A DNA stretch of 64,000 nucleotides from Escherichia coli (GTDB lineage Bacteria; Pseudomonadota; Gammaproteobacteria; Enterobacterales; Enterobacteriaceae): assembly GCF_003334255.1 (NCBI RefSeq), contig NZ_QOWU01000010.1; one strand, 5' to 3'. The notes beneath the pieces were generated by a model, which saw only the letters and a list, made by a program, of their open reading frames with translations, was not told where the DNA came from and made no database searches. The translations under genes and the position numbers were made by a program. Below, piece after piece: positions 7,140-9,362 of the stretch. How positions within the stretch are numbered: position 1 is the first letter of the stretch; each line of letters opens with the position of its first letter.

Positions 7140-9362
7140 TTAGTCCTCGTTTACAACCTTCTGCTGGGCGGCTTTTTTGGCCTGAGCGCGGGCAATAGCC
7201 GCGGCAACTGCCGCTTTGCGCGGATCAACCTGTTCTTCTGGTACCGCATTAGCCTGTTGCTGTTCCAGCTTGCGTGCTTTGGCGCGTGCAATAGCCGCTT
7301 CGACGGCAGCTTTGCGCGGATCAACCTGTTCTTCTGGCTCCGCATTAGCCGGTTGCTGTTCCCGTTTGCGCGCTTTGGCTCGGGCAATAGCGGCTTCGAC
7401 GGCGGCTTTGCGCGGATCGACCTGTTGTTCTGGCTCGGCATTAGCCTGTTGCTGTTCCAGCTTGCGTGCTTTGGCACGGGCAATAGCGGCTTCGACGGCG
7501 GCTTTGCGCGGATCGACCTGTTCTTCTGGTTCCGCATTAGCCTGTTGCTGTTCCAGCTTGCGCGCTTTGGCACGGGCAATAGCGGCTTCGACGGCGGCTT
7601 TGCGCGGATCGACCTGTTGTTCTGGTTCCGCATTAGCCTGTTGCTGTTCCAGCTTGCGCGCTTTGGCGCGGGCGATAGCTGCTTCAACGGCAGTTTTACG
7701 TGGATCAGCAACGGTTGCTGCGTCGTTAGTTTGCTGCAGTTCTGCCTGTTTCGCTCTGGCTTGCGCTTTACGGGCTTCCCGTGCTGCAATAATTGCACTG
7801 TTATCCGGGCGTTCGCCCGCTTTAATCACAATAGGCTGTGTAGCCTGGGCCTGTTTCTCTTTCACCCGCGCCAGAGCGGCAGCAATCGCATCTTTATCTT
7901 TGGCTGCAGGTTGAACGGCTGCGCTCTTATGTCGTTCAAGGCGAGCCGCTTTTTCGCGCTCCAGACGAGCCTGGCGCGCTTCGAAACGCGCTTTGGCTTC
8001 TGCGGCGCGCTTTTCTTCCTGACGAATAGCCGCAATTTCAGCTTTTTCCTGACGGAAATATTGCACCAGGGGAATATTGCTCGGGCAAACCCACGCGCAA
8101 GCCCCACATTCAATGCAATCAGCAATGTTATGCGTGGTAGCTTTATCGTGTTGCTGACCTTTGCTGAACCAGTACAACTGTTGCGGCAAAAGATCCGCAG
8201 GGCAGGCGTCAGCACAGGCGCTACACCGGATGCAGCTTTGTTCTTCCTGTGGTTCGCCAAGTTCATTGGCAGAGGGAGCCAACAGACAGTTGGTAATCTT
8301 TACGACCGGGACATCCAGCCATGGCAAGGTAAAGCCCATTAGCGGGCCACCCATAATCACCATTTGATCGGCAGAGGGGCAGAATCCGGCATCATTCAAT
8401 AAATGACGCACTGGCGTCCCCAGCCGTGCCCAGACGTTGCCCGGGCGAGCGATTGCTTCGCCAGTCAGGGTTACAACACGCTCGGTAATCGGCTCGCCAT
8501 CAATAACGGCACGTTTCACTGCATAAGCAGTGCCGACGTTTTGCATTAATACGCCGATATCGGATGAACGCCCGCCATGTGGAACCTGCTTCCCGGTCAG
8601 AATGTAGGTTAATTGTTTAGCACCGCCAGAAGGATATTTGGTTGGAATCACCCGCAGAGAAATATCGTTAGAGTCCGCCAGCACCGCGCGCAGCATGGAA
8701 ATCGCCTGCGGTTTGTTATCTTCAATGCCGATAAGAATTTCGCGTGGCTGCAGAATATGCGCAAGAATGCGAATACCCTCTACGACCTGAGCCGCGCAAT
8801 CCTGCATCAAACGGTCATCGGCGGTAATGTACGGCTCGCACTCAGCCGCGTTGATAATCAACGTTTCAATCTTATCTCCGCCACCCTGCAATTTAACGCC
8901 TGTCGGGAATCCTGCACCGCCCAGCCCGGCAACACCAAACTGATGTATGCGCTCGATTAACTCTTCGCGACTGCGAGTGCGATAATCGGCCCAGCCGTCG
9001 CGCGGGATCCAGCAGTCTTCACCATCGGCATCAATAATCACGCTTAATTCAGCTAAAGCTGAAGGATGAGCCGTAGAGTGGGGCGCAATAGCCGTAACGG
9101 TACCCGAGGTGGGCGCGTGAACAGGCAGCATTTTGCCGCGACCACGGGTAAGCGGCTGGCCGCGCAATACTTTATCGCCGACGCTAACGCACAACTCACC
9201 TTCAGCGCCAATATGCTGTTTCAGTGGAATAACAAAACGCTGCGCCAGGGGTACCTGGCGCAGGGGTGTACCGTTGGACTGGGTTTTCATCTCCGGTGGA
9301 TGGATGCCGCCGTTGAAATCCCAGATTTTATTTTTTCTGAATGCAGAGAATAACTTAAGCAT
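7140..9362 (-). CDS. rsxC: Rnf/Rsx complex subunit C (4Fe-4S, NADH-binding) with C-terminal repeat domain
   Basis: 740-aa ORF with Cys-cluster motifs ([24 protein letters not shown]) and repetitive Ala/Lys/Glu-rich C-terminus. Confidence 0.9.
7195..7720. repeat. in-frame tandem repeat (~96-bp unit, ~5 copies) inside rsxC 3' region
   Basis: Near-identical units ...GCTTTGCGCGGATCGACCTGTTCTTCTGG... recur with 96-nt period, encoding the repeated motif [32 protein letters not shown]. Confidence 0.85.

Follow-up and report, generated by a model that had tools for sequence, protein, structure and literature searches.

In-frame 96-bp tandem repeats of variable copy number at the 3′ end of Escherichia coli rsxC

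The stretch of Escherichia coli DNA analyzed here (64,000 nucleotides of contig NZ_QOWU01000010.1, assembly GCF_003334255.1; hereafter the window) contains rsxC, the gene for the C subunit of the RsxABCDGE electron transport complex, and the 3′ end of this gene is occupied by a head-to-tail array of 96-bp units. Our analysis makes it very probable that the array is an in-frame coding minisatellite, a reading that takes in differences in unit number between strains, purifying selection on the repeated peptide, conservation of a basic core motif beyond E. coli, and gain or loss of whole units by slippage or unequal exchange. As a minisatellite it is an ordinary one, found in a well-known gene and of a kind already described for the orthologue of Erwinia amylovora; its notable feature is a deeply conserved basic core with acidic linkers that are specific to each lineage, and the tail in which they lie has not been covered by structural studies of Rnf complexes.

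The repeat array and its variation among strains

A single strong array was reported by Tandem Repeats Finder (TRF) in the window (period 96, 5.4 copies, 91% matches, no indels, score 813); the runner-up anywhere in the 64 kb scores 54, so that the succession of near-identical head-to-tail units is far beyond chance. An earlier note, made from the sequence of this stretch alone, had placed the repeats at 7195–7720, which agrees with TRF (7186..7707) to within about 10 to 15 bases, and had recognized a repeated 32-residue motif in the C-terminal region of RsxC. Five full units of that length are read in the rsxC frame (window 7227..7706), starting at residues 553, 585, 617, 649, and 681. Each opens with DPRK, followed by T or A.

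The rsxC sequence was searched against all 5,426 complete E. coli genomes in RefSeq, as was a shorter query anchored in rsxD, and two systematic samples of 60 records each were taken in even steps down the ranking of 5,425 genomes. With the rsxD-anchored query, about one-quarter of the genomes have a divergent 3′ end to which the flank was not joined, and their classes were settled by fetched representatives. The spans of the matches fall into discrete classes in both samples, and the alleles that were fetched carry 0, 2, 4, 5, 6, or 7 full units (Table 1). The two samples agree. The suggestion in the earlier note that repeat number may differ between strains therefore holds, and a copy number identical everywhere is not what the sampled E. 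coli show. All alleles are in frame, and their lengths differ by exact multiples of 96 bp or by 3 bp. Of roughly 38,000 places matching the rsxC sequence, seven fall on records that carry a plasmid label, and a single genome among the 5,426 is without any rsxC match; mislabelled contigs, a deletion of rsx, or misassembly could account for these cases.

Table 1. Length classes of rsxC in E. coli (classes inferred from the spans of BLAST matches and one or two fetched representatives each, not counted genome by genome; shares are approximate and apply to both samples)
Full units	Protein	Gene	Representatives	Sample 1 (60 records)	Sample 2 (59 usable)	Share
0	580 aa	1743 bp	strain 1105	1	0	
2	644 aa	1935 bp	LD22-1	1	1	2%
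4	708 aa	2127 bp	EC24, EC21Z-014, EC16, HUSEC2011	12	11	20%
5	740 aa; 742 aa with two 33-residue units	2223/2229 bp	K-12 (740 aa); Nissle (742 aa)	35	36	60%
6	772 aa; 773 aa	2319/2322 bp	O157:H7 type (772 aa); SCU-111 (773 aa)	6	6	10%
7	806 aa	2421 bp	OV24, Z0117EC0013	5	5	8%

Relationships among the alleles were read by giving every distinct 96- or 99-bp unit a letter and writing each allele as a string. K-12 is A-B-C-D-E and EC24 is F-C-D-E; the 5′ part of unit F is identical to A and its 3′ end identical to B, so that F records an exchange in register, of exactly 96 bp, between the first two units of the K-12 allele. LD22-1 reads F-G, and HUSEC2011 and EC21Z-014 read F-M-N-G. Two adjacent units of SCU-111 are identical (“f f”), which points to a recent duplication. 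Whole units have thus been gained or lost at in-register junctions, as is characteristic of a variable-number tandem repeat (VNTR). The 99-bp units contain one additional CAA in a run of CAG and CAA codons.

The structure of these junctions suggests slippage or unequal exchange as the mechanism. Head-to-tail units that are approximately 91% identical would mispair, either by slippage during replication or by unequal exchange between sister chromosomes, and whole units would be gained or lost; with a unit length divisible by 3, the frame would be kept in every product. A smaller second step, the gain of a single CAA codon in the CAG/CAA run, would give rise to the 99-bp units.

These events appear to be slow. 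The O157-type allele (O-P-Q-R-S-T) is identical in four independent genomes, two further alleles each recur unchanged in a pair of genomes, and the K-12 derivatives present in the two samples all have the same array. The recurrence of identical multi-unit alleles in independent genomes indicates that the alleles are real and stable within lineages, and the locus is a slow, lineage-stable VNTR.

Purifying selection acts on the repeat peptide. Of the 18 columns that vary among the five K-12 units, 13 are third codon positions, and the proportions of synonymous (pS) and nonsynonymous (pN) differences are 0.29 and 0.03, a ratio of 0.10; pooled over 28 distinct units from 15 genomes, pN/pS is 0.09. 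A ratio this low at a pS of about 0.29 argues that the units are old and that their peptide has been maintained. The other two sense frames give ratios of 2.3 to 2.7.

A conserved basic core in a tail of predicted helices

The last 240 to 295 residues of E. coli RsxC lie outside the Pfam domains and the solved RnfC structures, and the Protein Data Bank contained no match to residues 499–740. About 40% of the protein is therefore without a structure or domain model, yet its motif is kept in at least five gamma-proteobacterial orders. A single-sequence AlphaFold2 model of residues 429–740, used for secondary structure only in view of its low confidence (predicted template-modelling score 0.25), gives every repeat core a single helix of about 24 residues; the helices are separated by short stretches of low confidence at the prolines and show no tertiary packing, an arrangement resembling helices on a string. 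Each unit has a core with a net charge of +4 and an acidic linker with a net charge of −4. The unit is thus predicted to comprise a basic, alanine-rich helix of about 24 residues and a short acidic linker containing proline.

A search with the tail alone against 1.84 billion representative proteins returned 94 matches. Twenty-five were fetched, of which the 23 longest are RsxC-like, all showing the RnfC core; the nine that were scored on NCBIfam are all RsxC equivalogs (728–872 bits, cut-off 345). The core motif, D-[PD]-[KR]-K-A-A-[VI]-A-A-A-[IVL]-A-R-A-K-A-[KR]-K, occurs with hardly any variation 111 times in 20 RsxC proteins. Cores are joined by linkers of 9 to 78 residues, which have only their acidic or polar character in common. 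Across these relatives the alternation of charge is kept, with cores of +4 to +5.6 and linkers of −3 to −9.

A degenerate DNA pattern for AAIARAKA[KR]K, scanned over one genome per species, identified at least 120 stretches. Among the matches listed, the named genomes belong to Enterobacterales, Vibrionales, Alteromonadales, Pasteurellales, Aeromonadales, and a few other groups, and the length of the unit is specific to the species (27 to about 70 residues). The open reading frame (ORF) holding the match has RnfC signatures in 91 of the 120 listed stretches, and in 27 of the other 29 it is cut by the 5′ end of the stored locus. Each lineage has therefore re-amplified the array, in every case around this basic core, which argues that the core is functional. 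Two cases suggest that arrays of other species contain frameshifts, whether real or erroneous: Enterobacter cloacae DSM 26481 (NZ_CP056117.1, locus L039) has a five-core ORF of only 191 residues that is not cut by the end of the locus and has no RnfC core, and one protein (P0034) reads like an RsxC array translated in a shifted frame.

Taken together with the predicted structure, the minisatellite reading would make the tail a flexible chain in which each basic helix is followed by an acidic spacer, carried by the cytoplasmic subunit of Rsx. Selection would keep the peptide, and the basic core above all, with the number of units only loosely constrained. The tail may then act electrostatically and in a multivalent manner, as a tether or docking arm that engages an acidic partner or an anionic membrane surface, although this role, proposed from sequence, is far less certain than the minisatellite itself. 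Several observations weigh against a functional view of the array. Strain 1105 has an allele with no full unit, and the tail is missing altogether from RnfC of Azotobacter, Clostridium, and Acetobacterium, so that the repeats are dispensable for basic redox chemistry. In addition, the helical wheel of the core, as read from the sequence, is not cleanly amphipathic, which weakens the idea of membrane binding.

Weighing of alternative explanations

Two further readings concern what the tail does. In one, considered tentatively and with some doubt, the basic core would bind specifically and multivalently, as a module found solely in RsxC/RnfC of gamma-proteobacteria, and would dock an acidic redox partner or regulator, or an anionic membrane, and unit number would tune the avidity or reach of Rsx. 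This proposal is argued wholly from sequence conservation, charge pattern, and purifying selection; if it were true, lineage differences in unit number would tune the re-reduction of SoxR and redox homeostasis. The other reading holds that the tail is a neutral passenger, a functionless low-complexity appendix whose slippage-driven changes in length are tolerated at the C-terminus of an enzyme. It is favored by the range of copy number (0–7 in E. coli, 0–5 in Erwinia), by the tailless RnfC of other phyla, and by the lack of a Pfam domain in the tail, but it is unlikely, given that old units have kept their peptide at a pN/pS of about 0.10, that orders with wholly unlike linkers have nearly the same 18-residue core, and that the alternation of charge persists. 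Even the zero-unit allele keeps the terminal degenerate unit and the single upstream copy.

The remaining alternatives bear on whether the polymorphism is real, how fast it changes, and which strand it serves. That the differences in copy number are mostly artefacts of assembly, arising from collapsed or expanded repeats, is extremely unlikely, even though individual cases do occur. The “complete” record of XL10-Gold (NZ_CP081008.1) begins in the middle of the array, whose remnant is annotated as a 133-residue hypothetical protein across the origin, and at its other end, where the 5′ portion of rsxC would be expected, there are unrelated tRNA and RtT fragments; the assembly seems to have been broken or wrongly joined at the repeat. 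Protein P0034, with its seemingly shifted frame, is of the same tendency, as is the zero-unit allele of strain 1105 (NZ_CP023388.1, locus L010 2501..4243), which is unique in the samples. In that allele the head of the first unit is fused in register to the terminal degenerate unit (DPRKTAV joined to AAAIARVQAKK...), leaving an intact in-frame ORF that the Prokaryotic Genome Annotation Pipeline nevertheless labels an incomplete pseudogene; it is either a true deletion or a collapsed assembly. Against artefact as a general explanation, the unit sequences are particular to each length class and recur unchanged in assemblies produced independently, by different laboratories and in different countries; the classes follow overall sequence identity, that is, lineage; the differences in length are exact and always in frame; and analogous alleles of Erwinia were verified by sequencing of polymerase chain reaction (PCR) products (PMC10587187). 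Ambiguous assembly at the repeats, which the earlier note had anticipated, is thus found in real cases, though seldom among these complete genomes. A contingency locus, in which a fast-switching repeat supplies a population with adaptive variation of Rsx activity, much as repeats do for the surface proteins of pathogens, is very unlikely. Pointing toward it are a non-frameshift deletion in rsxC reported in an olaquindox-selected evolved line of ATCC 25922 (PMC7696260), rsxC “mutations” repeatedly called at sub-clonal frequency, together with tolA, in lines evolved under cefotaxime (PMC9778841), and the presence of RsxC among features predicting O157 outcome (PMC12711010). The deletion fits instability of the repeats. 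The sub-clonal calls may fit it as well, but may equally be read-mapping noise in repeats, as is suggested by their co-occurrence with calls in tolA, another repeat-containing gene. Moreover, changes of 96 or 99 bp never shift the frame and so provide no on/off switch, the alleles are stable across lineages, and RsxC is a cytoplasmic protein.

The array might, finally, have its true function on the other strand or at the level of nucleic acid, as an antisense gene, a regulatory RNA, or a means of translational coupling to rsxD; this is barely conceivable. Long antisense frames are indeed open, one of them has a pN/pS of 0.13, and rsxD begins directly after the rsxC stop codon. Two of the three antisense frames, however, give pN/pS of 3.1 and, in the in-register frame, 6.3, and the value of 0.13 in the frame of 7216..7914 (+) is expected because its third codon positions are those of rsxC, so that it is not evidence of coding and cannot discriminate. 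The antisense frames are open because the tail is nearly without TTA, CTA, and TCA codons: in a tail composed of Ala, Lys, Arg, Glu, Gln, Asp, Pro, and Val, in-register reverse-complemented codons never give a stop. They are not all conserved, the in-register frame having 11 stops in one orthologue (L020). No promoter-like site facing these ORFs was found in a scan of the region, and terminator-like matches across the region do not exceed shuffled expectation; the array contains no such site on the rsxC coding strand and one on the opposite strand (7334..7352, +). The ORF at 7216..7914 (+) was considered as a gene and rejected, since the tail search found RsxC proteins, with a few fragments or out-of-frame translations of such arrays, and since open antisense frames are not all conserved. 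The earlier note was right to call the long antisense ORFs spurious, and they should not be annotated as genes.

Genomic context and comparison with known systems

The identity of the gene as rsxC, the name used in the earlier note, is well established. The window is K-12 sequence, and the gene is 100% identical to that of MG1655, with rsxB and rsxD as neighbors, and its product matches the NCBIfam RsxC equivalog NF003454 far above the cut-off (868.2 bits versus 345, over residues 12–570) as well as TIGR01945 (596.8 bits versus 245.95). Pfam matches are PF13375, PF01512, PF10531, and PF12838 (RnfC_N, Complex1_51K/Nuo51-type FMN/NADH, SLBB, and 4Fe-4S), and two CxxCxxCxxxCP motifs can be read in the sequence (Table 2). 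The operon order is rsxA-B-C-D-G-E followed by nth, according to the RefSeq annotation of the identical MG1655 locus and the ORFs of the window, and the order rnfABCDGE-nth is also found in two orthologue loci. Equivalog model, domain set, and operon order therefore all place the gene in the RnfC/RsxC family. A terminator-like hairpin lies at 9240..9263 (−), approximately 100 nt into the coding sequence, with a 10-bp stem containing eight G-C pairs (CTGCGCCAGGTACCCCTGGCGCAG then CGTTTTGTTA). A weak “NusA-dependent rsxC terminator” serves as a test template in a 2026 preprint (PMC13192885), and the hairpin may be that terminator.

Table 2. Features of the rsxC locus and of asr, in window coordinates
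Feature	Position	Strand	Description
rsxC coding sequence	7140..9362	−	740 aa + stop, 2,223 bp; C subunit of RsxABCDGE (Rnf-type) electron transport complex
RsxC catalytic core, aa 1–445	8028..9362	−	RnfC_N, Nuo51-type FMN/NADH domain, SLBB, two 4Fe-4S motifs; last Pfam domain ends at about aa 430
C-terminal tail, aa 446–740	7143..8027	−	No Pfam domain; Ala/Glu/Gln/Lys/Arg-rich, 85 Ala in 295 aa
Lone upstream degenerate core-motif copy, aa 491–504	7851..7892	−	Conserved in orthologues, opening D(P/A)(I/V)
Tandem array as called by TRF	7186..7707		Period 96, score 813
Unit 1, aa 553–584	7611..7706	−	Type A
Unit 2, aa 585–616	7515..7610	−	Type B
Unit 3, aa 617–648	7419..7514	−	Type C
Unit 4, aa 649–680	7323..7418	−	Type D; L→R and Q→P changes
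Unit 5, aa 681–712	7227..7322	−	Type E; E→V change
Terminal degenerate sixth unit, 28 aa + stop	7140..7226	−	In every allele, zero-unit one included
Spurious antisense ORF, 435 aa	7035..8342	+	Codons are reverse complements of rsxC codons; pN/pS 6.3
Spurious antisense ORF, 232 aa	7216..7914	+	Third codon positions coincide with those of rsxC; pN/pS 0.13
Extra ORF, 215 aa	7151..7798	−	Other frame
asr, 102 aa	59463..59771	−	Single imperfect 21-aa (63-bp) duplication

A similar repetitiveness had been attributed to asr. One imperfect duplication is present there (13 of 21 residues identical, 63-bp spacing, 70%–78% DNA identity), but it is far weaker than the rsxC array and the remark was overstated; TRF reports at asr only a 12-bp period with 2.5 copies and a score of 48. 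Minor TRF repeats elsewhere in the window (54410..54459, 47974..48005, and 27261..27296, with periods of 21, 11, and 18) have two to three copies and scores of 49 to 54.

For those who use these genomes, the length of rsxC is a real and lineage-informative polymorphism of E. coli. The array can be mis-assembled, annotation pipelines can mis-call the gene as a pseudogene or a “hypothetical protein,” and short-read variant callers may report spurious rsxC “mutations” in evolution experiments. The current understanding of the Rsx complex is unchanged by these findings.

The closest known system is RsxC of Erwinia amylovora, in which 0–5 copies of a 40-residue unit start at residue 553; the repeat, put forward as a VNTR marker, is described as stable (Sci Rep 2023, PMC10587187). 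Gene, starting residue, and in-frame strain polymorphism by whole units are shared with E. coli, and the E. coli array, with its tandem core units following the Fe-S domain as in other gamma-proteobacterial RsxC repeat tails, is the orthologue of the Erwinia array with a different linker. The first 16 residues of the unit are identical in the two, after which E. coli has RK and Erwinia KK; the E. coli unit has 32 residues (96 bp) and an acidic Gln/Glu linker, whereas that of Erwinia has 40 residues and an Ala/Pro linker. The range in our E. coli samples is 0–7 units, some of them of 99 bp, as against 0–5 in Erwinia. A literature search of incomplete coverage found no description of the E. coli polymorphism or of the order-wide conservation of the core, and only the Erwinia papers tie rsxC to repeats; looking for C-terminal extensions of RnfC brought up one unrelated paper, and a paper on rnfC of Haemophilus influenzae was set aside as a precedent, as it concerns an insertion and not these repeats.

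The solved RnfC structures (Azotobacter vinelandii, 8ahx_C; Clostridium tetanomorphum, 7zc6_C; Acetobacterium woodii, 9eri_C) have the catalytic core in common with RsxC, namely a barrel-sandwich N-domain, an FMN/NADH (flavin mononucleotide/reduced nicotinamide adenine dinucleotide) domain, an SLBB domain, and two 4Fe-4S clusters. They align to E. coli RsxC within residues 14–498 (E-values 2e-121 to 2e-84). At 435–496 residues, and unlike E. coli RsxC, these chains have no repeat tail.

Coding minisatellites of the type used in multiple-locus VNTR analysis resemble the rsxC array in being intragenic and head-to-tail, with a unit length that is a multiple of 3, whole-unit differences between strains, and in-register junctions. 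The rsxC array is atypical of such typing loci in its long unit, its slow change, the strong purifying selection on its peptide, and a core long conserved across orders. As a protein segment, the tail may resemble the lipoyl-domain linkers in the E2 component of pyruvate dehydrogenase and domain II of TolA, which are alanine-rich, charged, punctuated by proline, extended or helical, and tolerant of changes in length. It differs from both in being terminal rather than inter-domain, and in the sharp conservation of an 18-residue basic core rather than of mere composition.

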